DNA of 60,826 nt, filler included. It is 6 parts of 6 records of this genome, joined end to end, with 100 filler letters (N's around TTAATTAATTAA, not from the genome) between each part and the next. Parts side by side here need not be neighbours in the genome. Positions count along the whole stretch, not along the records: positions 15,278 to 28,603 come from SRR2962707_2531; 5 more parts are not named here. One strand, 5' to 3'. Numbering within the stretch: position 1 is the first letter of the stretch; every line of letters begins with the position of its first letter. The notes beneath the pieces are model-generated. The model had not been told where the DNA came from and made no database searches. It saw only the letters and a list, made by a program, of their open reading frames with translations. Positions 9,369 through 30,983 of this stretch are shown here, piece after piece. Both the position numbers and the translations under genes were made by a program.

Positions 9369-10238
9369 ATGACCGATCAACTTCCCATGACTGTCCCCGC
9401 CGCGATCACCCCGGCACAGCGCACCAGCCTGATCAATCTGGTCCGCCGTGCTGCCCGGACAGAAATCCTGCCGCGCTTTCGTGACCTGTCGTCGCTACAA
9501 ATAGACCAGAAAACCGGTCCACAGGATGTTGTAACCGAGGCTGACCGCGCCTCGGAAAAGATGATCGCGCGTGGGCTGATCCGGATGTTCCCCACGGCCC
9601 TGATCATCGGAGAAGAGGATGTCGCCGAAAACCCCGGGATCCTGGACAAGATCGCCGATGCACCGCTGGCTTTTACCATCGATCCGGTTGATGGCACCTG
9701 GAATTTTGCCCACGGCCTGACGACCTTTGGCGTGATCCTGTCCGCCACCCGTTTTGGAACACCGGTCTTTGGTCTGCTTTATGACCCGATCACCGACGAC
9801 TTGATCATCGCAGATGACATTGGCCCTGCAGAGCAGATCAAACCCTGCCGAGCCACCCGCAAGCTCAGCGTATCAAATGGCGGCGCGGTTGGTGATCTGA
9901 CAGGCTATATGGGGCTCACCCATGTGCCGGTGGATCAGAAAGCCGCCGTTGCGGCAACATTCCCACAATTCCGACGCCTGACATCGTTGGGTTGTTCCTG
10001 CCACGAATTCCGGATGATGGCGCAGGGCCATGTAGATTTTGTCTTTTCCGCCGGTCTGACCCCCTGGGATCACGCGGCGGGCGCGCTGATCACCCGACGT
10101 GCGGGCGGCCATGTGGCGCTGCTGGATGGGTCAGACTATCGCGCTGACGCGCCACGTTCGGCCTACCTTCTCGCCGCGTCGAACGAAAAGACTTGGAACA
10201 AAATCCGCGACACATTTGCCTTCCTGCTGGAAGGCTGA
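9369..10238 (+). CDS. inositol monophosphatase family protein
   Basis: DVVTEAD, IIGEE, IDPVDGTWNFAHG, PWDHAAG; SD AAAGGA before ATG 9369. Confidence 0.92.
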   Translation: MTDQLPMTVPAAITPAQRTSLINLVRRAARTEILPRFRDLSSLQIDQKTGPQDVVTEADRASEKMIARGLIRMFPTALIIGEEDVAENPGILDKIADAPLAFTIDPVDGTWNFAHGLTTFGVILSATRFGTPVFGLLYDPITDDLIIADDIGPAEQIKPCRATRKLSVSNGGAVGDLTGYMGLTHVPVDQKAAVAATFPQFRRLTSLGCSCHEFRMMAQGHVDFVFSAGLTPWDHAAGALITRRAGGHVALLDGSDYRADAPRSAYLLAASNEKTWNKIRDTFAFLLEG

Positions 10239-14965: not shown

Positions 14966-15051
14966 AAAAATCCCCGTCTTGTCTGGCCCGGGGTCGGCAT
15001 CGACCGCACCTAGGGCATTCACCATACGGGGGTCCTGCCCCGCAATCCGAA

Positions 15052-15177
15052 CGCCCCCTCTGTCCTGTCGCCTGAGATCGTTATCCCGTCGGCGGACGCG
15101 AACTGGCGCGCCTCTCTCCAGAGTCTTCGATGTCACGGCGGTCCTTCGGCCTGAGAGTTTCCGGGGCGGTTGCTCCT
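15052..15177 (-). ncRNA. tandem glycine riboswitch (aptamer 1 cut by contig end)
   Basis: Minus strand AGGAGCAACCGCCCCGGAAACTCTCAGGCCGAAGGACCG...CTCTGGAGAGAG...CCGCCGACGGGATAACGATCTCAGGCGACAGGACAGAGGGGG directly upstream of gcvT. Confidence 0.95.
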
Positions 15178-15277
15178 NNNNNNNNNNNNNNNNNNNNNNN
15201 NNNNNNNNNNNNNNNNNNNNNTTAATTAATTAANNNNNNNNNNNNNNNNNNNNNNNNNNNNNNNNNNNNNNNNNNNN
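15178..15277. other. artificial contig linker
   Basis: N44-TTAATTAATTAA-N44, with stops in all six frames. Confidence 0.99.
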
Positions 15278-15453
15278 CGCGCAAAAGCGGCTATAGATCG
15301 GCGGCGCGGCCGCGGGTCGATAGGCGGCGGCAAATGTAAGCGGCTGTAGCGCAATGCCGAGATCGAGCCGCATCCTTGCGCGCCCGTAGAATCCCACCTC
15401 CATGGTCCATAGGTGAATTTCGCGAAGCGCACCGCCATTGGACGAGCCGACTA

Positions 15454-16119
15454 TCACAGCACCTGCATCTCCACGGATTGCTTCCGCCAGTTCGTTACAT
15501 GACGCCGGATGATCGCCTGAAGGTTTTCGGCGTTTCGCGCTTCGAGGGCTTCGACCATTTCGAGATGATCGCGGCTGCTTTGCCGCACACCGGATGGGCT
15601 GGTCCAACTCGACCAGTCGCCGGGTAGATCCCGCTCGCGCAGCTCGTTTATGAGATTGGCAAGCGTCTCGTTGGCAATAGGCTCGAGCAATGCGCGGTGG
15701 AACTCATGATTGATCTGACGCAGGCGCTGAAACGAGGCATCTTCGATAGCAGCGTCGAACGCATGGGCGGCGTCCCGGACCACAGCGATATGTCTTGCCG
15801 TGGCGACCGCCACGATTTCAGTTGCGGCCGGCAACTCGAGCATCAAGCGGACGTCCGTGATCTCGGACCGTATTGTCGTACTGGGCGCAGCAACCCTGAA
15901 ACCCCGGTTTGGCACGTGCTCAACCACCTGCGCCAGTGCGAGCTCGGAGAGCGCCTGACGCACTGCGAAACGACTGCATCCCAATCGGTCCTGAAGGTCG
16001 ACCTGACGGAGCCACTCGCCGGGACGAAACACGCCGAGAATAATATCGCTCCGGAGGCGACCGACTGCCTTGAGCGGCTGGTCTGCGCGCTCCTTCTTGT
16101 CGCTTGCGCTATCACTCAT
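15454..16119 (-). CDS. GntR family regulator (FCD domain)
   Basis: LRSDIILGVFRPGEWLRQVDLQDRLGCSRFAVRQAL wHTH; RLMLE and NHEFH FCD motifs. Confidence 0.9.
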   Translation of the reverse strand: MSDSASDKKERADQPLKAVGRLRSDIILGVFRPGEWLRQVDLQDRLGCSRFAVRQALSELALAQVVEHVPNRGFRVAAPSTTIRSEITDVRLMLELPAATEIVAVATARHIAVVRDAAHAFDAAIEDASFQRLRQINHEFHRALLEPIANETLANLINELRERDLPGDWSSWTSPSGVRQSSRDHLEMVEALEARNAENLQAIIRRHVTNWRKQSVEMQVL

Positions 16120-17182
16120 TGCTGAAAACCGCCGCGTCCTCAGGCTTGATCCAGATACTGCCCGGACCGTGCGCTACGGGGGTTTCGAGCGTCAACCGCA
16201 ATGTACTCCCCGCGACCGTCACCTGCTGCTCGAAGTGATCACCAAGATAGCTTTCTGTGCCGAATTCGACCTTGATTTCCGAAGCACCGGCGAGCGGCGC
16301 GCTGCTGATCTTGTGTGGACGAATCGAAAGGAGTTGTTGTCCTGACGAAAGCCTGTCGCCCGGCGCATGCCCGCGAAGTATCTGCCCGTCCGCGAGCTTG
16401 ACGATGCAGCCGTCCCCTTGCACGCCCTGTTCTCCTTCAACTTCGACAAGGTTCGCATTGCCGATGAAACTAGCCGAGAAGGGATGCAACGGTGCGCCGT
16501 AAACCTGTTCGGGCGTACCCAACTGAACGATCTTACCGCCTCGCATCACGACGATCCGGTCCGACATTGCAAGTGCCTCGTCCTGATCGTGGGTCACATA
16601 GATGGTGGTGATGCCCAGCTCGCGCTGAATGTCCTTGAGCCAGACCCGCGCCTGCTGACGAAGCTGTGCGTCGAGATTGGACAAAGGTTCGTCCAGAAGC
16701 AAAATCGGGGGGCGGAAGACAATGGCACGCGCCAAAGCTACGCGCTGCTGCTGGCCGCCCGAAAGCTCACCCGGATAGCGGGACGCAAACGCGCTGAGCC
16801 CGACAAGTTCGAGGGCTTCGGCTATACGCTTTTTGCGCTGGTCCGCCGGCATCCGGCGCAATTTCAGGGGCATAGCGACGTTGTTATGTACGGTAAGGTG
16901 AGGCCAGAGTGCATAGGACTGGAAAACCACGCCGAAACCTCGCGCCTCGGGCGGCAGGAAGATGGCCTCGTCAGCGTTGAAGAGTTCCCTGTCGCCCAAC
17001 GCGATCCGGCCGGTCGTCGGCCTGTCGAGACCGGCGATTGCAGCGAGCGTCGTGGACTTGCCGCAACCGGACGGGCCCAAGAGGGTGAGGAACTCACCCT
17101 CGGCGACACCGAGGTTGATGTTATCGATGGCGGCAACGTCACCATAGCGGCGCGTGACCTGGGAAAGCGAGAGTTCAGTCAT
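16112..17182 (-). CDS. ABC transporter ATP-binding subunit (PotA/FbpC-like)
   Basis: [35 protein letters not shown]-terminal TOBE-like region. Confidence 0.93.
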
Positions 17183-18908
17183 AGATCTTGACCCCCAAAA
17201 GGATACGGCTGAAGACGAGGAGAACCGCGATCATCACCATCTGGATCGTGGCAAATGCGGCCAACTCCCCTACGTCGCCATTCGTCCACAGAGAGAGCAT
17301 CGAAACGCCCATAACCTCAAGCCCTGGTGCCATCAGGAAAATGGCAATGACGTAGGATTTGAGATGGAACACAAAGAGCAGAACGAAGGCGCCCAACAAT
17401 GCAGGTTTGAGAAGAGGCAACATGATCAACCGCATGGCATTCACCCAGTCGGCACCGACAGTCCGGGCAGCGTTGTCGAGATCACGGCTGATTTGAACGA
17501 TGGCCGGCTGGATCACCCCAAGAGCGAGCGGCAGAGTGGCCATGACATATGCCACAACGAGAATGCCGATATTGCCTCGCAGCCATCCCATGGGCGGAAA
17601 GACCACGGCCGCGTAGAACACGCCGAGCCCGGTGATCATGCCTGGCACGATGCGGGGCGAATAGGCCAATGCCTCGAGAATACCACTCCAGCGGAAACCT
17701 GATCTCTGAACGACCAGCGCGACGCAAACCGCCAGAAGCGTACCGAGCCCGGCTGAGATGAACGAAATCTCGAGCGTATTGACGATTGCGCGGATGTTGG
17801 CAGAATTGGTGAGGAGCTTTTCAAAATTACCCACCGTGAGCACCCGCTCAATCGGCACAAGCGGCGAGAGAAAGCTCGTAAATGCACGCAAGACAATGCC
17901 GAATATTGGAATAAGGACAAAGGCAAACAGCAACGCCGCGCATAGAGCCGCCAGCGGCCAACGGAACTTCCCCAGGCTGAGGGTCATCGGGCGGCTACCC
18001 TTGCCCTTGACGGTCTCGAAACGATGGCTCTGGCTGAGTAGAATGCGCTGGACCGCCAGCGCCGAACCCACGAGCACCATTAGCAGGATCGAGGATCCGG
18101 CGACAATCCCGTGGTTGGGGTTGCTCGCGGCTATACCCTCCTCGTAAAGGAAGGTGGACAGCGTTTCGATACGCGCCGGAGTGGCGAGAAACAATGGAAT
18201 GGACAGCGTCTCCACGGCAATCACCAGATTGAGCGCGGTCGAGGTGATGATCGATGGGACCATGAGTGGCAGCGTCACCTTCATGAGCACCTGCATGGGG
18301 CCAGCACCGACCGTGCGCGCGGCTGCCTCAAGCGTAGGATCGACCGAGCGCACCGCACCGTAGAGGCAATAGAGATAAGCCAATGGCGCCTGCGAAATTC
18401 CGGCAACCAACGACATGCCGGCAAGCGAATAGAGATTGAGCGGTTCGCTGCCGGTGCTCTGGGCGATGAACTGGGTGATAAAACCCGAGGGTCCATACAT
18501 AACGACCCACCCCAGCGCGAATATCAAGTGCGACAGGTAGAGTGGCCACATAAGAATATCGCCCATAACCTTACGGCCCGGCAGATCGGTGCGCCCGATC
18601 AGAAGCGCCGCACCGATCCCCACCACCTCGGCAATAGCCACGCTGAAGAGTGCGAACAGGCCGGTGGTGATCGCAATGCTGCCGATCTTGCTGGAGCTGA
18701 GAATTTCACCGAGATTGTCGAGTGTGAGCGCCCAGCCGTTTTCGTAGAGCGGGCGATCTACAAAGACCTGCAGAAGGATCGGCAACGCCGGTGCCAGCAT
18801 CAGGGCCGCCGTTAGCGCAAAGATCAACCATTGGACCATCCGCGAACGGTCCAGGCGGAGCGGGCGCAACAGGCTCCCGATCGGCATTGGGGTGGAGACT
18901 TGAGCCAT
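17175..18908 (-). CDS. ABC transporter fused double permease (FbpB-like)
   Basis: About 12 TM helices with two EAA loops (LEAAARTVGA, LDNAARTVGA). Confidence 0.92.
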   Translation of the reverse strand: MAQVSTPMPIGSLLRPLRLDRSRMVQWLIFALTAALMLAPALPILLQVFVDRPLYENGWALTLDNLGEILSSSKIGSIAITTGLFALFSVAIAEVVGIGAALLIGRTDLPGRKVMGDILMWPLYLSHLIFALGWVVMYGPSGFITQFIAQSTGSEPLNLYSLAGMSLVAGISQAPLAYLYCLYGAVRSVDPTLEAAARTVGAGPMQVLMKVTLPLMVPSIITSTALNLVIAVETLSIPLFLATPARIETLSTFLYEEGIAASNPNHGIVAGSSILLMVLVGSALAVQRILLSQSHRFETVKGKGSRPMTLSLGKFRWPLAALCAALLFAFVLIPIFGIVLRAFTSFLSPLVPIERVLTVGNFEKLLTNSANIRAIVNTLEISFISAGLGTLLAVCVALVVQRSGFRWSGILEALAYSPRIVPGMITGLGVFYAAVVFPPMGWLRGNIGILVVAYVMATLPLALGVIQPAIVQISRDLDNAARTVGADWVNAMRLIMLPLLKPALLGAFVLLFVFHLKSYVIAIFLMAPGLEVMGVSMLSLWTNGDVGELAAFATIQMVMIAVLLVFSRILLGVKIYD

Positions 18909-18955
18909 GGGAATGTCCTTTCGAGGGGAGCCGGGTCGCCCGGCTCCCCAAAGCG

Positions 18956-20050
18956 CTACATGTTGAACGCTTCGCCCCAGCGAGCAGTGAATGCATCGAA
19001 GGTTTCCACCATCTCCGGATCGTAGTCGATGAGGATCATCTTGTCCTCGCCGCCGATCGCCTCGATGACTTCGTCAAGCGAGTAGGACAGTTCGTCACTG
19101 GTGATAACGCCCGGCCGATAGGGCGTGAGATTGCCCGCCGCCACCGCGTACTGGCCATCTTCGGACAGCACGAAGTCGAGGAAGACCTTGGCGGCGGCCG
19201 GATGCGGTGCGCCGGCGGTAATGCCCATACCGCGCAGGAAAACGGGTGTTCCATCGGACGGGAAGGTCCAGCCGAGCACCTCTCCAAGCCCCTCCTGCTT
19301 AAGTCGGTTGAAGACGACCGGGCCGGAAACGACGAACGATGAGCTCAACTCCCCGCTCAGCGTGCGTTCGATCATCCCCCCGGCGCCACCACCGGGCCGC
19401 GTCAGCGGACCTGCGTTTTCGAACCAGTCCCAGGCCGGGTCTCCGTGGTAGCGGGCGAAAGCATAGCCGATAGCCCCGCCGAACGCATAGCGCCCGTCAT
19501 AAGTCCCCACCTTGCCTTCAAAGACATCGCGGCTCTCGGCAATGGCCGCAAAATAGTCCTCCATGGACGATAGCTGAAGACCTTCAGGGACCGTGATCTT
19601 GTTATAGATCGTCACCATAGGATCGGTTGAAATCGTATAAAGGCCCGGTTCGGGATAGCTCCATTCAGGAACGTTTGCCGTCTCAGGCGAGACATAGGCG
19701 TCCAGCATCCCTTTGTTTACTGCCGATATCCAGTCGGTTATCGAGTTCGCGATGACGAGGTCGGCGCTTGCGACGCCGGTGCCGGTCTCGGCCTGATAGC
19801 GCGTGAACGCCTCGGCCGGTCCCATCTCGATCGATTCCACCGCGATGTCGGGATAGGCTGCGTTGAAGGCCTCGATGATGGGATTGAGGTTGTCGCCGCT
19901 GAGATTGGTGTAAATGAGAAGCGATCCCTCGGCGTTGGCCTCGGTCACGAGGTCGGGGTAGTCCGCCGGATAGTTCTCCGGTAGCGTTTGAGCCTGTGCC
20001 AGGCTCGTAGCAAACAGTGCTGCTGCACCAATCGTCCAAATCAGTTTCAT
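18956..20050 (-). CDS. ABC transporter substrate-binding protein (AfuA/FbpA-like fold)
   Basis: Signal peptide (AQA), ANAEGSLLIYT, APHPAAAKVFLDFVLSEDGQ. Confidence 0.9.
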   Translation of the reverse strand: MKLIWTIGAAALFATSLAQAQTLPENYPADYPDLVTEANAEGSLLIYTNLSGDNLNPIIEAFNAAYPDIAVESIEMGPAEAFTRYQAETGTGVASADLVIANSITDWISAVNKGMLDAYVSPETANVPEWSYPEPGLYTISTDPMVTIYNKITVPEGLQLSSMEDYFAAIAESRDVFEGKVGTYDGRYAFGGAIGYAFARYHGDPAWDWFENAGPLTRPGGGAGGMIERTLSGELSSSFVVSGPVVFNRLKQEGLGEVLGWTFPSDGTPVFLRGMGITAGAPHPAAAKVFLDFVLSEDGQYAVAAGNLTPYRPGVITSDELSYSLDEVIEAIGGEDKMILIDYDPEMVETFDAFTARWGEAFNM

Positions 20051-20889
20051 GTTCCACTCCAGTTTTCTGTTGAGATAGCGCTTGCGTTATTATTGTCGAG
20101 CCATCGGCACAAAATGTCCGCGGCAGCTCCGGTGCAGGGGGCAAGCTCATGGCCCGCACCGGGAATTAGTTCGAACTCGCAAGACAGCCCTGCGTCGCTG
20201 AAGCTTTCGGCAAGCGCCCGGGTTCGCTCGATCCGGTTGGCGCCGGCGAGATCGGCAAAAGCCGACCCGAAAGACGATCCAGCGGGCCGACTGACGAGCC
20301 CTGCATTGCGGTCCTGGTCCCCAACGAGAAAGGCGATACTGAGCCGGGCGGTCGCTTCGATATCGAGCATTTCGCCCATGGCGTCGGCGCCCTTCAGGCC
20401 CGGCCACCATTCGACATCTTTGCGCAAGAGTGTCACGCTTCCTGGCGAAGCGGCGATAAACCCTTCGATGCCCTGCCCGCGAAATAACGCGTAGCGGTGC
20501 ACAAACTGGGCTCCGCCCGAGAAACCAAAGAGATAGGTCGCCCTTGGCGTCGCGTTTAGCTGCGCGGCTGCATCGCGCCGCATGGCATCGAGAAGATCGA
20601 GATAGTTCACCCCATTGCCTATGAGGAATTTGTAATCGTCCCCTATGTCCTGGCCGGCCAAGACTTGAGGAAATTCCGGCACGAGGAGGCTCACCCTGTC
20701 ACCAAGCGCATCAAACCCGCCAAGCAGGCCAGTTGTATCGCGATCGCTGCCGTGAACGGCGATCACCATCGGAGCGTCAGCCTCGCGCGCCGGCCGCAAG
20801 GCAAAGCGCCATTGGCCCGCGAAGGTCGTGGACAACCAGACGCTCTCGCTTGTCGTTTCGGTCTGCGCTGAGGGTGGCAACAGGGTCAT
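20047..20889 (-). CDS. alpha/beta serine hydrolase resembling poly(aspartate) hydrolase PahZ1-type enzymes
   Basis: VHG oxyanion motif, GFSGGAQFVHRY nucleophile elbow, VGDQD, NRIER, PGAGH. The PahZ1 resemblance is from memory. Confidence 0.7.
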   Translation of the reverse strand: MTLLPPSAQTETTSESVWLSTTFAGQWRFALRPAREADAPMVIAVHGSDRDTTGLLGGFDALGDRVSLLVPEFPQVLAGQDIGDDYKFLIGNGVNYLDLLDAMRRDAAAQLNATPRATYLFGFSGGAQFVHRYALFRGQGIEGFIAASPGSVTLLRKDVEWWPGLKGADAMGEMLDIEATARLSIAFLVGDQDRNAGLVSRPAGSSFGSAFADLAGANRIERTRALAESFSDAGLSCEFELIPGAGHELAPCTGAAADILCRWLDNNNASAISTENWSGT

Positions 20890-20943
20890 TGAATACCTTC
20901 GGGCTGCTGATCGGTCGGCGCCGCGAGGATCGCGATCGGGATC

Positions 20944-21005
20944 ATTGGCGTAATATTTGGCGCTAAAATTGGCGCCAATTTTAAACCGATGATTGTCTTT
21001 GTAAA
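20944..21005 (-). promoter_or_regulatory. sigma70-like promoter overlapped by a palindromic operator
   Basis: Minus strand TTTACA-16 nt-TAAAAT; perfect 20-bp palindrome TAAAATTGGCGCCAATTTTA (20964-20983); TTGGCG at 20945, 20957, 20969. Confidence 0.7.
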
Positions 21006-21021
21006 TCCCCTTCGGCTCATG

Positions 21022-21894
21022 TCAGGCCTCGGCCTTGTGCATCAAGTCGCTCGGACGAAGTGTAACATATTGAATATTTTCGATATTTCGAGCCTGGCTC
21101 AAGACGGGCAGCTTCCTGCGGACGTCATCAACCGTCTCGGTATCGATATCGGCCATGAGCACATCCGGATCATCCCCAGCCGCTGCGATCACCTCACCCA
21201 TCGGCGAAATGATCCGCGATTGGCCAAAGGTTCGCACGCCGTCCCTGACCCCACATTGCCCCGGCGCGATCACATAACACCCGGTTTCAATCGCCCGCGC
21301 TTTGAGCAGTGTCTCCCAATGCAATGGACCGGTTACCGGTGAAAACGATGCAGGGACCATAAGAACCTGCGCCCCAGCCAACGCCAGCGCCTGGAAGAGA
21401 TACGGAAAACGGATATCGTAGCAGATGGAAAGTCCGAACCCGACTCCCTCGACTTCCACGACAATGCCACCTCTCCTGCCCGGCGCGACAGCCAGGGACT
21501 CGGTGAAATCGTTCTTTCCGCCCAGCGCGACATCGAAGGTATGGAGCTTGTCGTACCGCGCAACGATATCACCCGATGGCGCGATCACATGGCTGCGGTT
21601 CCACACCCGCGCGCCGTCTTCGGTGCGCACGAGAAGCGAGCCGGTATGAAGCCAAACGCCGCATTCCTGCGCAAGACTGCGACAGAGGAACAGCGTTTCG
21701 TCGTTCTCCTCAGGCCGACAGATGCGCGGATAATCCAGATTATTTGACAGAAGAATGTTCGCTGCCTCTGGAAGGCAGACAAGCTGCACTCCCTTGCCGG
21801 CCGCATCATGAACGGCCTCGGCAATGGTCAGGTTGTTTCGATCCACATCGGCGGTCGAACACATCTGAATGGCGGCAATTTTCATCCTGGTCAT
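21022..21894 (-). CDS. carbon-nitrogen hydrolase (Nit1/deaminated glutathione amidase-like)
   Basis: E-K-C triad: LPEA, YDKLHTFDV, SICYDIRFP; TGPLHWETLLKARAIETGCYV. Confidence 0.9.
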   Translation of the reverse strand: MTRMKIAAIQMCSTADVDRNNLTIAEAVHDAAGKGVQLVCLPEAANILLSNNLDYPRICRPEENDETLFLCRSLAQECGVWLHTGSLLVRTEDGARVWNRSHVIAPSGDIVARYDKLHTFDVALGGKNDFTESLAVAPGRRGGIVVEVEGVGFGLSICYDIRFPYLFQALALAGAQVLMVPASFSPVTGPLHWETLLKARAIETGCYVIAPGQCGVRDGVRTFGQSRIISPMGEVIAAAGDDPDVLMADIDTETVDDVRRKLPVLSQARNIENIQYVTLRPSDLMHKAEA

Positions 21895-21903
21895 CGGTTC
21901 ACC

Positions 21904-22806
21904 TCAGTCGTTGCGCGCCAGGAAATCCGAGACCACCGCCATACAGAGTTCGTGCTCCTCGACGTGGGGCATGTGGCTCGACTTGCCCAGGATGATCCAT
22001 TCGGCACCCGGTATGTTATTGGCATAGGCCTGGACGGTGAGCGGTGTCGCCTCATCATAAAGACCGGAAAGAACCAGCGCAGGCACGGCGACGGCATGCA
22101 GCCGGTCTTCTATGGTCCAGCCTTTGAGCGCGCCGATCACATGGAATTCAGTCGGGCCATTCATGGTGCGATAAACTGTGGTGTCCTCGTCCATGGCGGT
22201 AAAGGTGCGCTTGACCTCGTCTGGCCATTCCGCCATCCGGCACACGTGCGCGCGGTAAAAAATGTCCGTAGCTTTACGATAGGCTGGATCATCGTATGCG
22301 CCGGTCTCTTCGTATTTCAGAAGCGTTTCATGAACCCCATCCGGGAGCGCCATGCGCAGCCGGTTCGCCTCTTGAACCCAGAGTTTCAGCGAGGCCGGCG
22401 AATTGGCGATCACAACGGCGTTGAGACCAACGGGCTGCCTCACGGCGTGCTCGGCGGCCAGCATTCCACCCCACGATTGTCCCAACAGATTGTAGCGCGC
22501 GGCGATGCCCAGATGCCGAGTCAGGTTTTCCAGTTCCGACAAGAACAGATCGACCGTCCAGAAATCAGCGGGCGCGTCCCGCAGGTGCGAGGAACGCCCG
22601 TTGCCGATCTGGTCATAATGCACGACAGCCCGACCGGACGAGGCAAGGGCCTTGTAGGCATCGACATAGTCGTGCGTGCATCCGGGCCCCCCATGCGCAA
22701 TCACGACCGGCGCAAGATCGGACGAAAGGTCTCCGGTTACCCGATACCAGGTCTGGTGGTCTCCGAAAACGCAAAAGCCTTCTTGAATATCGATCGCATT
22801 CGTCAC
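21904..22806 (-). CDS. pip: proline iminopeptidase / L-amino acid amidase (S33), 300 aa
   Basis: [54 protein letters not shown] start at 22806 inferred from upstream GGAG and family length. Confidence 0.88.
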
Positions 22807-22869
22807 TGTCGAAACGTCTCCAGCCAACTCGTATGAAACCAGCATGCTCCGGAGATGGCCAGGTCCGTA

Positions 22870-22889
22870 AGCTGCAAGATGTTGCACGG
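22870..22889. promoter_or_regulatory. lux-box-like 20-bp inverted repeat upstream of pip
   Basis: AGCTGCAAGATGTTGCACGG, core TGCAA-N4-TTGCA, one mismatch to CT-N12-AG; centred ~73 nt before the pip start. Confidence 0.5.
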
Positions 22890-22941
22890 TGCGCAGCCTG
22901 GCGCTGCGACCTAGGATGCTTCCGGCAATAAAGGAACCAGT

Positions 22942-23709
22942 ATGACAGCCCGCTCCTCGAACCTGCGCGAAACGCTGCTCAGCGGCGCGCAAACCCTCGG
23001 CGTTTTTCTTTTTCTCGGCTCGCCGGACGTGGCGGAAGTGATGGCTGTGGCAGGTTTTCGGGTATTGCTCGTCGATCGCGAACACGCTGCCGCCGATTAC
23101 GCGACGGCATTGGCCGAATTGCGCGCGATCCGGAGCGTCAGCGATGCCTTCGTCATGGTCCGCACGCGCGATAACTCCCCCGGCGCCATCAAACCGATGC
23201 TTGACGCAGGCTTCGACGGCATCATGGTGGCCGACATACGCACGCCGAAGGAAGCCCACGCGATTACCGATGCTGCTCGCTATGCACCGATGGGGCGCCG
23301 AGGTGCACATTTCACCGTATCCCGCGCTGCACACTACGGATTGGACGTAGCGCGACATTCCGAAACCGCAAACCAAAGCATTCTCGTATGCGCCATGATC
23401 GAGTCTCGCCAAGGGCTCGAAAACATCGATGCGATTGCCGCCGTTGAAGGTATCGACATGCTGTTTCTCGGCCCGCTTGACCTGACCGCCGACTACGGGA
23501 CCTTCGGCAACCTCGCCTCGCCCGAGCTCGCCGCTGCCCTTCACAAGGCGGAAGCCCGGATCACGCAAAGTGGGAAACTGCTCGGTGGCGCCGCGCTGCC
23601 CGGCGATACCCTTGTTGACCTTTTTTCGCGCGGCTACAGCCTGGTCACCAGCGCCAGCGACGTCGGCATTCTGCGCGAGGGCGCGCTCAAATACACTCAA
23701 TGTAAATAG
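22942..23709 (+). CDS. HpcH/HpaI aldolase family protein
   Basis: [29 protein letters not shown]...[22 protein letters not shown]. Confidence 0.92.
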
Positions 23710-24404
23710 CCATAGCGAGCGGCCAGCGCCACGCTGTGCGACCGATTGCGCGCTCCGAGCTTTCGCGCTGCCGACTGTAAATGCTTGACGACCATCGATT
23801 CCGAGCGGCCGAGTTCGAACGCGATCTGCTTGGCTGAAAGCCCCTTCCCTGTCATTTGCACGCATTCTCGCTCGCGCGGAGACAGACGGGGCACCGCTGG
23901 TTCGAGCATCGGTGCAATCCGGTCCTGCAGCTCGTGAGCCACATAGGCGAATTGGGCGAGTATCGAACGCGAGGGTGCGCTCCCACCCAGAAAACCGGTC
24001 GCCGTCGCGAACCCGCCTCCCGGCAGATGGATGGGAACGGTGATGCCGCGCGCGAGGCCCCACGCCATGAGCTTTTCCGACACCTGATCGGCCCCATCCG
24101 CGACAAGCTCAGGTGTGATCATCGATGGTTCGCCGGGATGGTAGGTCCAGTAGAACGGCCGGGTGATCCGGCTCGCGCAGCGTTGCACCGGGTCGAGCCG
24201 ATAAAGCCCATGTTCGCACCAGTCGGTCAGCATCTCATCTGGAATGCCGCGCGCCTCGATGTGCGTGGGGAGGCAAAACACACCTTCTTCCGCGCTGAAC
24301 GGGACCGGGGAAAAATCGTAGAACAGCGCCTCGATGCCCCCCCTACGCAAATCGGCGTAAATTTCGTCTACGAGCCCAGCGATGGCGTCATGTTGCCTTA
24401 TCAT
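23697..24404 (-). CDS. LuxR solo of the plant-associated PipR/OryR/XccR type
   Basis: Autoinducer-binding domain [27 protein letters not shown] plus [27 protein letters not shown] before ATG 24404; no luxI on the contig. Confidence 0.85.
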
Positions 24405-24428
24405 GCTCCCTCCGTGCCAACCGCGCAC

Positions 24429-25094
24429 TCAACCGAGCTTGGCGGCGACAATCGCGCTGGCGCCTGAAAGCGCACCGATCCGTTCGCCTGCCTCCACCCC
24501 CGCAATCGTTCGGTCGGTGATTTCCTTGAGCGCCTCGGCCCGCGCGAGAGCAGCCCCAAGTTCACCGCGCGGGATCACCACCACCCCGTGCTCGTCGGCC
24601 AACACAGCGTCGCCGGCAATGACCGGTACTCCGCCGCAACTCACCGGCGCGTTCATCGCGCCGCCAATGCCCTGAATGCGCGTGGTGAGCGCAGAGGCGC
24701 CGCGCGACCAGACGGGCATACCGATCTCGACGAGTTCGCGTGTATCGGTGTGGCGCCCGTCGATCACCACGCCAGCAGCCTTGCTGTTGACCAGCGCAAG
24801 CGCCACACCCCCGCCGAGGCAGGCATAGATATCGTCGCCGCGCCGGTCGATGACCAGAACGTCGCCCGGCCGCAACAGCCCGGCCGCATGATGCAACATC
24901 GTGGAGTCCTGTGCCGGAAGTGATAGCGTGACCGCCGTTCCGCAAGCGCGCAGTTCAGCGGACACTGGCCCGATCCCGGGCGACAATATTCCCCGCTGCA
25001 GGAAGTGCCCCAAAAGTACGGTCTCGAGCCGAGCCAGCCGCGCCAAGAGGTTGGCAGCTACAGGTTCGGGCATGACATCGATAAGAAAATCCAA
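24429..25094 (-). CDS. RraA family / HMG aldolase-like protein
   Basis: GTAVTL, RPGDVLVID, LGG, GVVIDGRHTD, PVSCGGVPVIAGDAVLADEHGVVVIP; TTG start after AAGGGGA inferred. Confidence 0.88.
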   Translation of the reverse strand: MDFLIDVMPEPVAANLLARLARLETVLLGHFLQRGILSPGIGPVSAELRACGTAVTLSLPAQDSTMLHHAAGLLRPGDVLVIDRRGDDIYACLGGGVALALVNSKAAGVVIDGRHTDTRELVEIGMPVWSRGASALTTRIQGIGGAMNAPVSCGGVPVIAGDAVLADEHGVVVIPRGELGAALARAEALKEITDRTIAGVEAGERIGALSGASAIVAAKLG

Positions 25095-25169
25095 ATCTTT
25101 CCCCTTATTTCCCAAGGGAATTAATCGCCGGCTCTGGCCCTATGTCCACATTATCGTTTTAATAAGCCC

Positions 25170-25184
25170 ATAAAGAACCCTTAT
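25170..25184. promoter_or_regulatory. LysR recognition site
   Basis: ATAA-N7-TTAT (ATAAAGAACCCTTAT) between divergent rraA-like and lysR genes. Confidence 0.7.
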
Positions 25185-25271
25185 AGGGCACTACTGAGAT
25201 TGGTCGTCCGCATTGTTCTATCTCTTATAAAACCTACACATGGCGACCCCACGTAATCCGGAAGACGGCAA

Positions 25272-26165
25272 ATGAACCTCAAGGGCATTGAGACCTTTTA
25301 TTGGGTAACACAGTTGCTCAGCTTCCAGCGCGCCGCGACACAGCTCAATATTTCACAGCCAGCGGTGAGCAGCCGCATCCGCGCGCTCGAAGAGGAACTT
25401 GGTGTACGCCTGTTCGTCCGCGAAAAGGGTGTTGCGCTCACCGAGCAGGGCCGGGAACTTTTCGATTATGCCCAGCGGGTTCTTCAGTTGACACGAGACC
25501 TATCGTTCAGCGCGATGGCCGATGCCGAGCCCGATCGTCTCCGCATAGGCGCTTGTGGTCCGGTTGCGATGTCCTGGCTCACGGAACTATGCGACGGCCT
25601 CCATGATCATTACCCCACGCTGCGGCTGGAAATCGACATCGAGAAGTCGGCAAACCTTCTCCAACGGCTACTCTCGGGCCAACTCGACATCGCCTTTGTC
25701 GCCGACAGCTCCCATGAACCGCGGCTCCGCATCGAAAAGATCGCCGAGCTTCCCATGCAATGGATTTGTCATCCCGACGTCGCAGGCGGGCGCACGCAGA
25801 TTGGCGCTCAAGAGCTCGATAGCCTGCCGGTTATCGGGTATGGCTGGGATTCACCGTTGCATGAAGTCACCCATGCGCCAGTTTTCGGCCCCGGACGACG
25901 TAATCGGTTCACGACGAGCGACAGCCTTTACATGATGGTGCGAATGGCTATCCAGGGCATGGGATTGATTTGCATCCCCCGCTCGGCGGTCGCACCCGAA
26001 CTCGCTTCGGGCATGCTTGTGGCCATCGAGGTGGATGAGCCGCAGCCGTCGTTACCAGTCTTTATGGCAACAACCCGCGAACGCGGGCCAAGAGTCCTTC
26101 ACGCTGCCAGGGATCTTGCGACGGAACTGGCATCCCGCGACGAAGGGGCCAGCGGGAATGTCTAA
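25272..26165 (+). CDS. LysR family transcriptional regulator
   Basis: SFQRAATQLNISQPAVSSRIRALEEELGVRLFVR; 297 aa. Confidence 0.95.
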   Translation: MNLKGIETFYWVTQLLSFQRAATQLNISQPAVSSRIRALEEELGVRLFVREKGVALTEQGRELFDYAQRVLQLTRDLSFSAMADAEPDRLRIGACGPVAMSWLTELCDGLHDHYPTLRLEIDIEKSANLLQRLLSGQLDIAFVADSSHEPRLRIEKIAELPMQWICHPDVAGGRTQIGAQELDSLPVIGYGWDSPLHEVTHAPVFGPGRRNRFTTSDSLYMMVRMAIQGMGLICIPRSAVAPELASGMLVAIEVDEPQPSLPVFMATTRERGPRVLHAARDLATELASRDEGASGNV

Positions 26166-26712
26166 AACTCGCGGAAGACTGCCCACCGAAGCGCTCTCCT
26201 CCACGCCCAAGACGTTGGGGAAATCTACGGAACTGAACGTGGTCTCTGGGCATGGGGAAGCGAAATTGGTCCACAGGTTTAAGAGGTGTTAGCTAGTGGC
26301 TGCTTCTGAGAAATCGAGGTGGGGGCTTCAACGGCTGGACTGGGGGCGCAAAGCAGTCGTTCATCAGATGTGCACACAGAAACCGAAATGGCGGTTCGGA
26401 ACGCTGGCAGACGCCCTTGGCGTAATAGACCTTGCGGGCAATAAGCCACAAGAACGGGGAAACGCCCTGCCAGCCCTTTCCCGGCCGGGCGATCTCGCTT
26501 GCCAGGATACTTTCGCTCGCACAATGAGAATGGGAAGGGGGATTTCCCCAGACTAATCCGTAGTCCGCGGTGCGGCTTCGAACACACAACTCCCATTCGA
26601 ATTATCGCTTCCCAGGCGTTTGCGTCAATCTGGTCCATCCGTTGTGCACGCTATGTCGCGCCATGCTTCGCACGCAGGCCAATAGATATTTCATAATTCG
26701 CCGGATCGCCTC

Positions 26713-27039
26713 ATGGTCTTCTTCATGGCTGATTGCAGTGAGAAACTTAAGGATACGTCGTCACATTCTGCCTCCACCGGGCACCATCCACGGTGGACCC
26801 CCGAAATTGTACGGCTGTCCGCCCCGCCATCTCGTGCCAATGAACAGACCGGTCAGGAATATCTTCCAGTAACGGGAAACGGCTTGCCCACCGAGATTGA
26901 CGATGCGATTCTGAAGTTCGCGCGGGTTCTCGCACGCCAAGCGGCCAGAGAAGACCATGCGCACCAACAAGCAGGGAGTGCATGTCATGACGAAACAAGC
27001 GGCGATTTACGCGCGGTTCTCCACCGATCTGCAAAGTGA
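26713..27039 (+). CDS. small LARQAARE-motif protein overlapping the recombinase start (start uncertain)
   Basis: ILKFARVLARQAAREDH; I recall this motif from small ORFs preceding alphaproteobacterial serine recombinases. Confidence 0.45.
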   Translation: MVFFMADCSEKLKDTSSHSASTGHHPRWTPEIVRLSAPPSRANEQTGQEYLPVTGNGLPTEIDDAILKFARVLARQAAREDHAHQQAGSACHDETSGDLRAVLHRSAK

Positions 27040-28603
27040 GCGGTCGATCGAGGATCAGATCACTCTCTGCAGGAAGCACGCCGCAGAGCACAACCTCACG
27101 GTCGTCGCGACTTACGAAGACAGGGCCAGATCAGGTGCCTCGGTCTTCGGACGAGAAGGTCTCGTTCAACTCATGGATGCTGCTCGCGATAGTGCGTTCG
27201 ACGTAGTGGTCATTGAGGCGCTCGACAGATTGTCGCGCGACATGGAGGACTTGGCTGGCATTCATAAGCGCCTTTCCTTTCTCAACATCGAAATCCGCGC
27301 CGTGCACGATGGCGTCGCCAACACGGTCCTCGTCGGCCTTCGAGGACTGGTTGGCCAACTCTATCGCGAAGACAATGCGCACAAGATTCGACGCGGCCAG
27401 GCTGGGCGTGTCGGACAGGGGCTCAATGCCGGCGGGCTAACCTACGGCTATGCCGCTGTTCCTGGTGAGCCGGGAAAAAGGCAGGTTGTCGAGGACGAAG
27501 CCGAAATCATCCGCTGGATCTTCAACGAGTATGTCGATGGTCGCACCCCGCGCGACATCGCGCGCGACCTCAATCGCGACAACGTTCCTTCCCCGCGTGG
27601 AACGAAATGGAACGCCTCGACGATCAACGGAAACATGCAACGCGGCACGGGCATCCTGCAAAACGAACTCTATGATGGCCGGCTCGTCTGGAACAAAGTG
27701 CGCATGGTGAAGAATCCTGACACTGGCCACCGCGTCTCTCGCCCGAATCCGAAAGAAGAGTGGCAGTCGGTCGAGGTGCCCGAACAGGCGATCGTCAATC
27801 GCGTACTGTTCGAGCAGGCACAGGCACGCAAACGGAATCGCAGCCTTGACCATCCACATCACCATCGCCGACCACGTCACATGCTTTCGGGGCTACTTCG
27901 GTGCGGTGTATGCGGATCGGGCATGTCAACGAATGGCAAGGACAAGTCGGGCCGTATCCGGATCAGGTGCTCGGCCGCAACGGAAAGCGGGTCGTGTCCC
28001 GACCCGAAGACCTTCTATCTGGAGACCGTAGAGACGGCCGTTCTATCCGGCCTGCGTACCGAAATGAAGAGCCCCAAAGTGCTCGCCGAATACGTGAAGA
28101 CCTATCACAAGGAACGCAAGCGGTTGTCCGCAGAGGCCGATGCTAATCAAACTCGGCTTGAGCGTCGTGCCGATCAACTCAAGCGCGAGATCGACCGATT
28201 GGTCGATCATCTTGCCAAGGGAATCGGCGATCCATATGTGATCGGTCCCCGCTCAACAGAACTCTACCATGAGCGTGAGGCGATTCTTGCAGAACTCAAA
28301 AAAGCTCCACTCGCACTCGAGGTTTTATCGTTACACCCGACCATCCTGAAGCGCTATGAAGAGCAACTTGAAAACCTACAAAAAACCTTGGCGGAAGGCA
28401 TTCGTTCGGGTGATCAGGAATGCGCGGAAGCAATACGGGAACTCGTCGAAACGGTGACCGTCTACCGCGATCCCTCTGAACCCGGCGCAATCGAAATCGA
28501 GATCGCGGGACGGCTCAACGCGATCCTTGGCGAGCGCGCCTATCCCAATGGCGTCAAGCGGGTGTGGGGACCGTTGGTAGCGGAGGAGGGACTTGAACCC
28601 CCG
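26987..28603 (+). CDS. large serine recombinase (integrase), runs off the contig end
   Basis: AIYARFST catalytic Ser, LDRLSR, recombinase domain, LSGLLRCGVCGS zinc ribbon, coiled coil; C-terminus LVAEEGLEPP. Confidence 0.95.
28575..28603 (-). tRNA. 3' end of a tRNA (probably CAT-anticodon Met/Ile2), the island attachment site
   Basis: Minus strand CGGGGGTTCAAGTCCCTCCTCCGCTACCA gives T arm, acceptor strand and CCA; the anticodon lies beyond the contig end. Confidence 0.8.
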
Positions 28604-28703
28604 NNNNNNNNNNNNNNNNNNNNNNNNNNNNNNNNNNNNNNNNNNNNTTAATTAATTAANNNNNNNNNNNNNNNNNNNNNNNNNNNNNNNNNNNNNNNNN
28701 NNN
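28604..28703. other. artificial contig linker
   Basis: N44-TTAATTAATTAA-N44. Confidence 0.99.
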
Positions 28704-28925
28704 GCGAGGATATTTAAAAGCCAGAGAATACGGGTCCGCCCCCCATCCGTTATGGCAGATAGGGGGCTTCTCCGGCTACGGCCATCGGCGTCCCCGCCTG
28801 TACCGCCCAGAAAAACTATCCCCCTTATGCTGAACAAAGGCTTAAACGCCGCAGCCACTTCCGCATTCTCTGGCTTAAAAATATCCCGGGGGGATGGGCG
28901 CAAGCCCAGGGGGGCTGGCCCCCCT
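28704..28925. repeat. inverted pair of Rhodobacteraceae REP-like elements
   Basis: AGGATATTTAAAAGCCAGAGAAT (28707-28729) is the reverse complement (20/23) of ATTCTCTGGCTTAAAAATATCCC (28865-28887), which is followed by G-rich hairpins. Confidence 0.7.
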
Positions 28926-28955
28926 TCCCGACCGATGCCGACAGGCAGCGGAACA

Positions 28956-30116
28956 TTAGGCTCCCAGCGCACGCAACATCTCGCGACTAATAATGTGGCG
29001 CTGGATTTCGCTGGTACCGTCCCAAATCCGCTCCACTCTTGCATCACGCCAGAAGCGTTCAATCGGGTAATCGTCCATCAAGCCCATACCGCCGTGCAAT
29101 TGCAGCGTAGCATCTGTCACACGGGCCAGCATCTCCGACGCATAAAGCTTGGCGCTTGCGATCTCTCGGTTTGCGGGCAGACCTTTGTCCAAGCGGTCCG
29201 CAGCGGCAAGCGTCAGCAGATCAGCCGCGTCAATTTCGGTAATCATATCGGCAAGCTGGAAACTCACCCCCTGGAACTTGCCGATCTTCTGGCCGAACTG
29301 TTCGCGTGTCGCTGCATAATCCATTGCATAGTCGAACACCCTGCGTGCCCGCCCCACGGACATGGTCGCAACGGTGATGCGGGTGGCATAAAGCCACGTG
29401 TTCATCACGTCGAACCCGCTATCGACTTCGCCCAACACCTGCGCATCCGGCAGGCGGCAATCGTCGAATTCCAGAATCATGTTCTTGTAGCCCCGGTGGC
29501 TGACCGACTTGTACCCGTCGCGGATCGTAAAGCCCGGCGTGCCGCGGTCCACCAGAAAGGCGGTGATCCGCTTTTTCGGACCTTTGGGGGTCATATCTTC
29601 GCCTGTCGCGATGAAGACGATGATGAAATCGGCATGGTCCGCGCCCGAGATAAAATGCTTGGTCCCGTTCACCACCCAATCGCCACCATCGCGCCGTGCG
29701 ATGCATTTCATACCGCGCACATCCGATCCGGCACCCGGTTCAGTCATCGCGAGCGCATCCATGCGTTCGCCGCGCACGGCAGGCATCAGATAGCGGTCGA
29801 TCTGTTCGCCCTCACAGGCCATCAGGATGTTCTGCGGACGTCCGAAAAAGTGGTTCAGCGCCATCGACCCGCGCCCCAACTCGCGCTCGACCAATGCGAA
29901 CTCAAGATGGTTCAGCCCAGCGCAACCGACACTTTCGGGAAAGTTGCAGGCATAAAACCCCAGCTCGATCGTCTTGCGCTTGATCTCATCTGCGATTTCC
30001 TGGGGGACTTCACCGGTTTGTTCGACCAGTGTCTCGTGGGGGTAAATCTCTTTTTCAACAAAGCTACGCACGGTGTCGGCGATCATCAGGTTTTCTTCGG
30101 ACAGACCGTAATTCAT
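28956..30116 (-). CDS. acyl-CoA dehydrogenase
   Basis: ALAMTEPGAGSD, NGTKHFIS, REQFGQKIGKFQ, QLHGGMG, RIWDGTSEIQR. Confidence 0.96.
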   Translation of the reverse strand: MNYGLSEENLMIADTVRSFVEKEIYPHETLVEQTGEVPQEIADEIKRKTIELGFYACNFPESVGCAGLNHLEFALVERELGRGSMALNHFFGRPQNILMACEGEQIDRYLMPAVRGERMDALAMTEPGAGSDVRGMKCIARRDGGDWVVNGTKHFISGADHADFIIVFIATGEDMTPKGPKKRITAFLVDRGTPGFTIRDGYKSVSHRGYKNMILEFDDCRLPDAQVLGEVDSGFDVMNTWLYATRITVATMSVGRARRVFDYAMDYAATREQFGQKIGKFQGVSFQLADMITEIDAADLLTLAAADRLDKGLPANREIASAKLYASEMLARVTDATLQLHGGMGLMDDYPIERFWRDARVERIWDGTSEIQRHIISREMLRALGA

Positions 30117-30140
30117 TGCTGGTCTCCCGAGATACCAAGT

Positions 30141-30896
30141 TTAATGCGCATAGTTGGATCCTTCTTCGTTCAAAATTGCCTTGAGCTCTACCAGATGGCG
30201 CGCGTCTTGCTCTGGATAGCTTTCCAGCTCTTGCGCGGTTTTTTCTGCGATGTCGTCAGGGATGCGGCGCAAGGGCATGCCGGTTTGCAGGGCCCGAATA
30301 TATGTCTCGGCGGCGCGTTCGAAATAGAACAGCCGGTTGAAAGTATCGGCCACGGTATCACCAATCACCAGCACACCGTGACTGCCCATGACCATCACTT
30401 TTTGCTTGGGATCGGTCAGCAATGCGGCACAGCGCGCGCCTTCATCCTCAAACGCCAATCCGCCGTAATCTTCGTCAATCACGACGCGGTTGAAAAACGT
30501 GCAGCAGTTTTGATCGATCGGCGGCAGGCGGCTATCTTGCAAGCTGGCCAGCACGGTCGCGTGGATCGAATGCACATGCATTACACATCGTGCGTGGGCA
30601 CAGGCGCGATGCACACCACCGTGCAAGCCCCACGCGGTGGGATCGGGCGCATCGGGGCCATTCAATGTGTCGGGGTTGTTGGCATCCACCTCGATCAGAT
30701 CGCTGGCTTTGACCCTGCTAAAATGCACCTGGTTCGGGTTCATCAGAAACTTGGTGCCATCGTCATTCACTGCAAGACTAAAGTGGTTCGCGACCCCTTC
30801 GTGCATGTTCAAGCGCGCTGTCCAGCGAAACGCTGCGGCCATGTCCACGCGTTCTTGCCAGTGGTCCATATTCTGACGGATTTGCGTCACGGTCAT
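30141..30896 (-). CDS. class II aldolase/adducin family protein
   Basis: HEGVANHFS, WGLHGGVH, CVMHVHSIHAT, MGSHG; SD GGGAG before ATG 30896. Confidence 0.92.
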   Translation of the reverse strand: MTVTQIRQNMDHWQERVDMAAAFRWTARLNMHEGVANHFSLAVNDDGTKFLMNPNQVHFSRVKASDLIEVDANNPDTLNGPDAPDPTAWGLHGGVHRACAHARCVMHVHSIHATVLASLQDSRLPPIDQNCCTFFNRVVIDEDYGGLAFEDEGARCAALLTDPKQKVMVMGSHGVLVIGDTVADTFNRLFYFERAAETYIRALQTGMPLRRIPDDIAEKTAQELESYPEQDARHLVELKAILNEEGSNYAH

Positions 30897-30983
30897 CTGT
30901 GTCTCCCTGTTTTGCCCGAGCGATCGGTGTTCCTTGCGTCGCATCACCTTGAACCTCGTGCAATCTTCGTGTCAACGTCAGGC

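Follow-up and report, generated by a model that had tools for sequence, protein, structure and literature searches.

The luxR locus and its gene content

The DNA analysed here (the window, 60,826 nt) consists of six contigs joined end to end by five artificial spacers of the form N44-TTAATTAATTAA-N44. The contigs are unlinked, and open reading frames (ORFs) that span a joiner, for instance at the tail of the recombinase described below, are artefacts. The subject of this study is the second contig (SRR2962707_2531, positions 15278–28603, 13.3 kb), which carries a gene for a LuxR-type receptor. The gene order is gntR, ATPase, fused permease and binding protein of an ATP-binding cassette (ABC) importer, alpha/beta hydrolase, Nit amidase, pip (proline iminopeptidase family), hpcH, luxR, rraA-like gene and lysR; a gap of 0.8 kb and a large serine recombinase follow (Table 1). 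A preliminary description of the locus had placed a Nit amidase, HpcH and RraA-type proteins and an ABC importer beside luxR and pip, and domain scans found all of them present. The cluster represents a version of the known circuit of plant-type LuxR solo and pip that is new, conserved and mostly marine. We consider it probable that a plant-type LuxR receptor lacking a paired luxI (a LuxR solo) is embedded here in a variant regulon. Published systems are cited throughout from passages of the respective papers.

The receptor and its relatives

The luxR ORF translates into 243 aa, with the key motif encoded at 24189–24236. The likely start is the ATG at 24404, giving a protein of 235 aa, which is also the length of a recorded protein of 99% identity. 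Both expected domains score above their cut-offs, PF03472 (Autoind_bind) with 48 bits and PF00196 (GerE) with 44 bits. For the numbering according to TraR we used phmmer, which pairs receptor residue 76 with TraR residue 67, an offset of 9. The receptor residues M66, W70, D79, P80, W94 and G128 correspond to W57, Y61, D70, P71, W85 and G113 of TraR. Translation and alignment thus bear out the earlier observation of an M in the place of TraR W57 and a W in that of Y61. According to a review (PMC10134790), the combination W57M/Y61W and a regulated adjacent pip define the subfamily.

There is no luxI on the 13.3-kb contig, in line with the preliminary description, since every ORF of coding size belongs to another family; the seven ORFs in the only gap (26017–27091) gave no Pfam match. 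In five genomes carrying the same cluster no luxI match was found near the locus. Elsewhere in these genomes luxI-family genes occur in three, and the other two are without a luxI-family match.

Close relatives of the receptor are few. At 51–57% identity they come from Celeribacter, Oceanicola, Monaibacterium and Roseicitreum, all marine Rhodobacterales, and from Mesorhizobium sp. Z1-4, and just 13 matches at E<=1e-30 exist among 1.84 billion cluster representatives. Identity to the classical plant-type members is 35–40%. Two trees were calculated, a quick one from 145 LuxR proteins and a careful one from 70 rows with IQ-TREE, the latter rooted with two LuxRs taken from beside luxI genes; their topologies agree. 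Proteins with M or L and W at the two positions (M/L-W) from luxR–pip loci form one clade (97/97, 45 rows), apart from the W-Y receptors, and this clade includes the members from Klebsiella, Rahnella, Ensifer, Sinorhizobium and Rhizobium as well as the group of the window receptor. Klebsiella and Rahnella are listed in the XccR/OryR/PsoR/NesR group in a 2015 survey (PMC4338825). The window group is monophyletic (100/99, 17 rows) and nested among the alphaproteobacterial members; it is closer to the Ensifer/Rhizobium type (95/92) than the latter is to the Klebsiella/Rahnella type. A clustering with receptors of acyl-homoserine lactones (AHLs) was looked for in the tree and did not appear. The receptor of the window is a member of the plant-type (OryR/XccR/PipR/NesR) clade and is separate from receptors paired with a luxI.

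The ligand pocket was compared between the window group (17 sequences), the classical group (21) and AHL-type receptors (16). In the ligand domain, 21 positions are conserved and identical in the window and classical groups, 15 of which are not common to the AHL-type receptors. The sole conserved position of the pocket domain that differs is residue 75 (L versus Y). Because the pocket positions are near-identical to those of the classical solos, a ligand of the same general class may be expected, and our best guess is a polar amide of small size, for example a derivative of ethanolamine. To our knowledge, the sole known ligand of plant-type LuxR solos is N-(2-hydroxyethyl)-2-(2-hydroxyethylamino)acetamide (HEHEAA), for PipR.

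The pip gene product matches TIGR01250 with 257 bits (cut-off 168), its best solved structure being 7a6g (E 3e-129). Coordinates and this match agree with the earlier statement that a proline iminopeptidase lies 0.9 kb from luxR: the start of pip is about 0.9 kb from the luxR stop, with hpcH in between. In two related loci, L001 and L088, pip is directly adjacent to luxR. Classical loci carry two pip-family genes, and the pip of the window is the orthologue of the one downstream of luxR, with 57–70% identity to the downstream genes of related loci versus 33–40% to their upstream paralogue. In Klebsiella these values are 61.5% and 37%, respectively. We infer the GTG at 22806 as the start codon, because alignments with orthologues begin at residues 16–22 of the ATG-started ORF; the annotated pip start in Roseicitreum (L086) is the equivalent of this GTG.

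Conservation of the gene cluster

A scan of one genome per species yielded 80 loci, which were compared with the twelve proteins of the window. The majority (72 of 80) are classical: luxR is flanked on one side by two-ATPase ABC genes together with a pip-family gene, and on the other by pip. Of these 72 loci, 67 have the downstream pip (57–63% identity to the pip of the window) and 71 the upstream pip-family paralogue (33–40%). According to the annotated Klebsiella and Rahnella records the ABC genes are a Dpp-type operon. A plasmid record of Klebsiella variicola shows the classical context in full; in Rahnella aquatilis, Dpp-type operon and downstream pip occur without the upstream pip-family gene. 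The same context is tabulated for NesR, OryR, XccR and PsoR (PMC10134790, PMC4338825) and described for PipR (PMC4981722).

The remaining eight loci, designated Type A, share the gene set of the window. Their hosts are Tritonibacter mobilis, a Paracoccaceae metagenome-assembled genome, Mesorhizobium sp. Z1-4, two Thalassospira, Rhizobium rhizogenes ST15.13.057, Xinfangfangia pollutisoli and Pseudooceanicola. The hpcH gene is found in seven of the eight and in L086; in Mesorhizobium sp. Z1-4 it is missing and luxR stands directly next to pip. The gene order of the window occurs also on the 425-kb plasmid pRA01 of Roseicitreum antarcticum. A partial set, pip-nit-luxR beside both types of transporter, lies on the 858-kb plasmid pOM-1 of Nitratireductor sp. 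OM-1. Altogether the module is present in at least nine other genomes from three alphaproteobacterial orders, most of them marine. None of hpcH, rraA, nit, the hydrolase and this binding protein was found within 10 kb in the 72 classical loci.

Gene order varies by lineage: in Thalassospira and R. rhizogenes (L005–L007), rraA stands between nit and the hydrolase gene. The set stays together despite such differences, which points to a shared function of its genes. Thus, the synteny search suggested in the preliminary description shows the Nit/HpcH/RraA/ABC extension to be a conserved module, present in 8 of 80 loci and on pRA01. The Dpp-type peptide transporter and the second pip-family peptidase are both missing from the contig of the window, where other genes stand in their place. 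This transporter is not universal in the family, as Xanthomonas has no ABC transporter (PMC4981722).

In the Pseudooceanicola locus (L004 11479–12174) the cluster is decayed. It has kept lysR-rraA-luxR-hpcH and the box described below and lost the rest; its pip is truncated to an ORF of 231 aa, which aligns with the first half of the hydrolase profile and no further.

Among 401 sampled Rhodobacterales genomes, two of which were known carriers, seven encode a receptor of this clade. In all seven a pip lies within 1.5 kb, and in three hpcH stands between. Clade receptors are rare in Rhodobacterales, and the hpcH variant is rarer still.

A conserved palindrome upstream of pip

Between pip and hpcH lies a lux-box-like palindrome, the sole site in the window within three mismatches of the perfect palindrome CTGCAAGATCTTGCAG. 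Its centre is 73.5 bp before the GTG start of pip, compared to 72.5 bp in Roseicitreum (L086), and a published pipA box is located at -71.5 bp (PMC4981722). Equivalent 16-mers precede pip in the eight Type A loci and in L086. The box reads CTGCAAGATCTTGCAG in L001, L002 and L004, GTGCAAGATCTTGCAG in L086 and CTGT(A/C)ATTTCTTACAG in Thalassospira, and there are related forms in L003, L007 and L040. The boxes of the window group are CTG/GTG-N10-CAG palindromes at the same place before pip. A degenerate pattern made from them is unspecific and also matches unrelated places (36 hits in 25 sources).

The classical loci have a different element, CTAT-N8-ATAG, which is present in 71 of 72 at exactly two sites, one before pip and the other at the 5' end of luxR, on the side of the upstream operon. 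Across the 1.65 Mb scanned this pattern gave 138 hits and none elsewhere. In locus coordinates the two sites of L008–L080 lie at about 9870–9950 and 10709–10801, and the remainder of their 20-kb stretches is free of the pattern. For NesR-type solos of rhizobia the element is thereby a candidate binding site of great clarity; L087 and L089, which are gammaproteobacterial, are without it. The pair mirrors the two PipR sites predicted in strain GM79 (PMC4981722).

A second copy of the Type A box, perfect or near-perfect, was found at 18313–18328 in L001 and at 21121–21136 in L086. It stands between gntR and the operon of a tripartite ATP-independent periplasmic (TRAP) transporter (dctPQM), which suggests that the regulon may include this second importer. 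The contig of the window ends about where the second box would stand. A DctP gene on contig 5 (54241–55332) was considered as the TRAP gene following gntR and rejected, as it has 22–25% identity to those of L001 and L086; it does not connect the contigs.

Enzymes, importer and regulators of the cluster

The genes on the pip side of the box form a string on one strand that ends with gntR (Table 1). Best solved relative of the binding protein is 7f6e, an "iron ABC transporter, periplasmic iron-binding protein" (E 7e-28), which may bind a metal-citrate. The permease is 65–80% identical in Type A loci, its orthologues in L086 and L088 being annotated "iron ABC transporter permease", and the ATPase is 61–72% identical across these loci and matches TIGR03265 with 345 bits, which is below the cut-off. 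Binding protein and permease thus belong to the ferric/PotD-type importer group. The gntR gene overlaps the ATPase gene by 8 bp and has orthologues of 49–62% identity at the same position in L001, L003, L005, L007, L040 and L086. Likewise, orthologues of lysR (46–51% identity) are at the same position in L001–L004 and L086.

The alpha/beta hydrolase is annotated under this name in L086 and L088, and its top match among solved structures is poly(aspartic acid) hydrolase-1 (9o7u, E 4e-12). The Nit protein scores 175–178 bits against the models of deaminated-glutathione amidase, below their cut-off, and its solved relatives are NitFhit (E 2.5e-41) and Nit2 (E 1.8e-40). Enzymes of the Nit2/deaminated-glutathione amidase branch hydrolyse amides of 2-oxo-dicarboxylates. 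Judged by solved relatives, HpcH (1dxe and 2v5j, E about 1e-35) and the RraA-like protein (3noj, 4-carboxy-4-hydroxy-2-oxoadipate aldolase/oxaloacetate decarboxylase, E 3e-20) resemble 4-hydroxy-2-oxo acid aldolases and an oxaloacetate decarboxylase. Because three amide-bond hydrolases and two C-C lyases occur together with an importer, the cluster points to the uptake and breakdown of a small amide, probably that of an oxo- or hydroxy-acid.

Table 1. Features of the luxR contig and artificial joiners of the window
Feature	Position	Strand	Evidence
Artificial joiners between contigs	15178–15277, 28604–28703, 39424–39523, 47858–47957, 55619–55718		
gntR, GntR/FCD-family regulator, last of the pip-side gene string	15454–16119	-	Pfam GntR + FCD
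ABC importer ATPase (PotA/PhnT2-like)	16112–17182	-	Pfam ABC_tran
Fused two-domain ABC permease	17175–18908	-	two BPD_transp_1 stretches
Periplasmic substrate-binding protein	18956–20050	-	Pfam SBP_bac_8, SBP_bac_1, SBP_bac_11
Alpha/beta hydrolase (PahZ1-like)	20047–20889	-	weak Abhydrolase_3 match
Nit1/Nit2-type carbon-nitrogen hydrolase (amidase)	21022–21894	-	CN_hydrolase, 181 bits
pip, proline iminopeptidase-family hydrolase	21904–22806 (GTG, likely) or 22845 (ATG)	-	TIGR01250
Lux-box-like palindrome CTGCAAGATGTTGCAC between pip and hpcH	22872–22887		
hpcH, HpcH/HpaI-family aldolase, divergent from pip	22942–23709	+	Pfam HpcH_HpaI, 111 bits
luxR, receptor gene	23697–24428	-	PF03472, PF00196
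rraA-like aldolase/decarboxylase gene, directly upstream of luxR, same strand	24429–25115	-	Pfam RraA-like, 108 bits
lysR, LysR-family regulator, divergent from rraA-luxR	25272–26165	+	Pfam HTH_1, LysR_substrate
Polymorphic junction, right-hand limit of the cluster/left-hand limit of the insertion	26330–26354		contigs of other runs
Large serine recombinase, cut by the contig end; neighbour, outside the circuit	26957–28603	+	Pfam Resolvase, Recombinase, Zn_ribbon_recom

Proposed circuit and alternative explanations

For ligand, expression and regulation by the solo we infer the following from the sequence. The Fe/PotD-type ABC importer would take up a small non-AHL compound. The receptor would bind this compound or its product and then the palindrome, and would activate the string pip-nit-hydrolase-binding protein-permease-ATPase-gntR and perhaps the divergent hpcH; that pip is regulated by the solo is suggested by the conserved position of the palindrome. 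Pip, the Nit amidase, the PahZ1-like hydrolase, HpcH and the RraA-like protein would degrade the imported compound. The signal would then also be the substrate and the response self-limiting, as for PipR, where peptidase mutants over-respond (PMC4981722). GntR and LysR would add local control, with LysR probably acting on rraA-luxR.

The presence of these two further regulators in the cluster allows another explanation, namely that GntR and LysR alone run the catabolic and transport genes, and that LuxR controls only pip (with hpcH) or unlinked targets, its linkage being a matter of shared ancestry or hitch-hiking. A 132-bp gap between nit and the hydrolase-ABC genes holds a promoter-like site (21005–20978, 10 of 12 matches), and the second box before the TRAP transporter in L001 and L086 means that the regulon extends past this string. 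However, the number of promoter-like sites in the region (6, with 3.8 expected) does not exceed the chance level, and the linkage of luxR to pip-nit and to hydrolase-binding protein-permease-ATPase-gntR outlasts three gene orders and three bacterial orders. Furthermore, in Pseudomonas sp. GM79 the linked transporter is required for the response (PMC4981722). We therefore regard this explanation as unlikely.

Less probable still is that the whole module is the cargo of a mobile island integrated by the neighbouring recombinase. The preliminary description had placed the cluster on such an island, integrated at a tRNA gene. Indeed, the large serine recombinase begins 0.8 kb past lysR, the distribution of the cluster is patchy, as seen in the 401 Rhodobacterales genomes, it is located on plasmids in two genera, and its flanks differ in every related locus. 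However, there is no tRNA gene: ARAGORN found none in the window, there was none at the Rfam gathering threshold and none even at E<=1 in 26100–27000, and the assumed integration at a tRNA has to be given up. In a 99%-similar strain cluster and recombinase are both present and unjoined. The entire contig is matched, at about 99% identity, by contigs from three libraries of one study (X4, X6 and X7), which part at the polymorphic junction. Their cluster-side piece (25847–26354) continues into unlike DNA, and their recombinase piece (26330–28603) is preceded by 2.3 kb of unlike DNA. An X3 contig bridges the junction, and a marine-metagenome run of another study spans 25897–27034 with 0 differences. 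This fits an element on the right-hand side of the cluster. Most simply, the recombinase would be part of an element inserted beside lysR in the strain of the window, with the LuxR cluster outside; a rearrangement of another kind could also explain the junction. Thus, the claim of a mobile island carrying the cluster does not hold.

Consistent with this, none of 43 flanking ORFs from seven related loci (L001–L005, L007 and L040) matched recombinase or transposase families. PADLOC gave no match for the recombinase, direct and inverted repeats on the contig were only chance-like short pairs, and a megablast search of plasmids with the contig returned nothing beyond short matches to the ABC ATPase. 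Because the cluster is patchy over three orders and lies on large plasmids in two genera, it has likely spread horizontally, though not by this recombinase element.

The 25 bp common to both broken junctions are a candidate recombination core of the large serine recombinase. In the 99%-similar strain 12 bases are missing at 20945, between nit and the hydrolase gene and near the promoter-like site, and single bases are missing at 26164, in the stop codon of lysR, and at 26254 downstream of it.

Least probable is an AHL-sensing solo that eavesdrops on the acyl-homoserine lactones of neighbours: the equivalents of D70, P71, W85 and G113 are retained and three of five carrier genomes have luxI-family genes elsewhere, but the receptor falls into the M/L-W clade, from which both the luxI-paired receptors and the W-Y representatives are separate, W57M/Y61W is tied to a lost AHL response (PMC10134790, PMC4981722), two of five carrier genomes have no luxI-family match, and the cluster includes an importer, whereas AHLs require none (PMC4981722).

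Several points weigh against a plant-type solo circuit at this locus. The negative result for luxI covers the contig and the scanned ORFs of the window, a part of the genome. The M/W motif is not a strict rule, because in the closest Rhodobacterales relatives the residue equivalent to W57 is L and not M, and PipR departs at just one of positions 57 and 61 (PMC4981722). The phylogeny called for at the outset nests the receptor in the plant-type clade (97/97), but the prototypes OryR, XccR, PipR and PsoR are absent from the tree, and membership is read from literature-assigned genera and contexts. The position of hpcH between luxR and pip departs from the classical adjacency. The box of the window has two mismatches to the perfect palindrome, a match for which the chance mean is 0.27 and which 27 of 100 shuffles contained; its weight comes from position and conservation, not from the match alone. 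GntR and LysR are possible main controllers of the catabolic genes. Finally, three RNA-library runs with the locus have flat depth, equal over coding and non-coding parts, and give no sign of transcription. The plant-type LuxR solo put forward in the preliminary description is backed by the motif, the phylogeny, the orthology of pip and the conserved box before it.

Habitat and possible meaning

The nearest relatives of the receptor are from marine Rhodobacterales, and the host is not of the plant-associated type. Apart from two runs that may be its source, the stretch was also found in one marine-metagenome run of a separate study, with 0 differences in the listed pieces, as well as in libraries of a coded organism of one study and in runs of synthetic communities, which come from seven studies. 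Runs X16–X19, with small shares of its words, are uninformative on habitat. The occurrence in runs and the taxonomic position of the closest relatives support a marine, alga-associated host. It had been stated before that the marine context comes only from unlinked neighbouring contigs. These are indeed unlinked, being separated by N spacers, but relatives and metagenome run also support it.

More speculatively, and with considerable doubt, the circuit might be a phycosphere counterpart of OryR/PipR, in which an alga-associated amide is imported by the Fe/citrate-type ABC transporter, sensed and destroyed by the induced pathway. If so, the linked enzymes would reveal the class of ligand, i.e. 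amides of 2-oxo/hydroxy di- or tricarboxylic acids and ethanolamides of amino acids. Vibrioferrin is composed of citrate, 2-oxoglutarate, alanine and ethanolamine, and on chemical grounds the compound may be a breakdown product of a carboxylate siderophore of this type.

A conserved marine, alga-associated variant broadens the ecological range of the plant-type LuxR solo circuit, which in the literature is one of plant-associated bacteria. It ties the receptor to defined amide hydrolases, aldolases and an importer, which can be assayed to narrow down the ligand, and it is present in cultured strains, namely Tritonibacter mobilis, Roseicitreum antarcticum and Celeribacter baekdonensis. Furthermore, the shift of the box from CTAT..ATAG to CTGC..GCAG is paired with a change in the region of the recognition helix and offers a compact case of drift in LuxR DNA specificity.

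Other contigs of the window

At the end of contig 1 a glycine riboswitch aptamer (15050–15131, minus strand, 40.9 bits versus a cut-off of 32) lies inside the 5' part of a long gcvT ORF; therefore, the true start of gcvT must be downstream of the first start codon of this ORF. Contig 4, with a G+C content of about 0.52–0.55, lower than that of the rest, holds at 40319–47164 three large ORFs of 721, 881 and 598 aa for which neither Pfam nor PADLOC gave a match. A 1344-aa ORF at 28752–32786 (plus strand) is mostly spurious: its last third alone is an adenine deaminase, and it overlaps genes for an acyl-CoA dehydrogenase (28956–30116) and a class II aldolase (30141–30947), both on the minus strand.

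Comparison with known systems

In main-text passages of the literature we found no report that connects pip with a LuxR solo of a marine bacterium. A 2025 review on marine quorum sensing uses none of the terms LuxR solo, PipR and OryR, and the variant context is not mentioned for the group: aldolase and nitrilase do not appear in the 2015 survey (PMC4338825), nor HpcH in the review PMC10134790. The genera of the survey include Citreicella and Rhodobacter, for which the classical context only is given (PMC4338825).

The AHL receptors TraR, LasR and RhlR are of the same two-domain fold family as the receptor described here. Matches to RhlR (E 5e-07) and TraR (E 0.12) are weak and mostly in the DNA-binding domain. 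These receptors carry other residues at positions 57 and 61 and form a separate clade, and unlike them the receptor has no luxI partner on its contig. VarR of Nautella italica R11, a LuxR solo of a marine Roseobacter that is tied to disease of algae, is likewise an unpaired LuxR-type regulator of an alga-associated roseobacter (PMC3230580, PMC4602140). The passages on VarR describe no linked pip (PMC4602140, PMC3230580), and the likeness is one of description.

With NesR, OryR, XccR and PsoR (PMC10134790, PMC4338825) the receptor shares W57M/Y61W, the other key residues and the linked pip. The published context of these regulators is pip/peptide transporter-luxR-pip, from which that of the window differs (PMC10134790, PMC4338825).

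Most similar in design is the PipR/aapA-F/pipA system of Pseudomonas sp. GM79 (PMC4981722), although this likeness, too, is by description. In both, a LuxR homologue with no luxI beside it has a pip just downstream, whose start is preceded at about 72 bp by an inverted repeat; both also have a linked ABC importer, there needed for the response, and linked hydrolases, there damping it (PMC4981722). The PipR arrangement occurs also on plasmids of Klebsiella and Rahnella, in the latter without the upstream pip-family gene. The differences lie in host, box and gene content. The host here is marine, and the box is CTGCAA..TTGCAG instead of the CTAT..ATAG of the alphaproteobacterial classical loci. 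The five-gene Dpp-type peptide transporter and the second peptidase (aapA) of the PipR system are missing from the window, which has instead a three-gene Fe/PotD-type importer, a Nit amidase, a PahZ1-like hydrolase, two aldolase-type enzymes and the regulators GntR and LysR.

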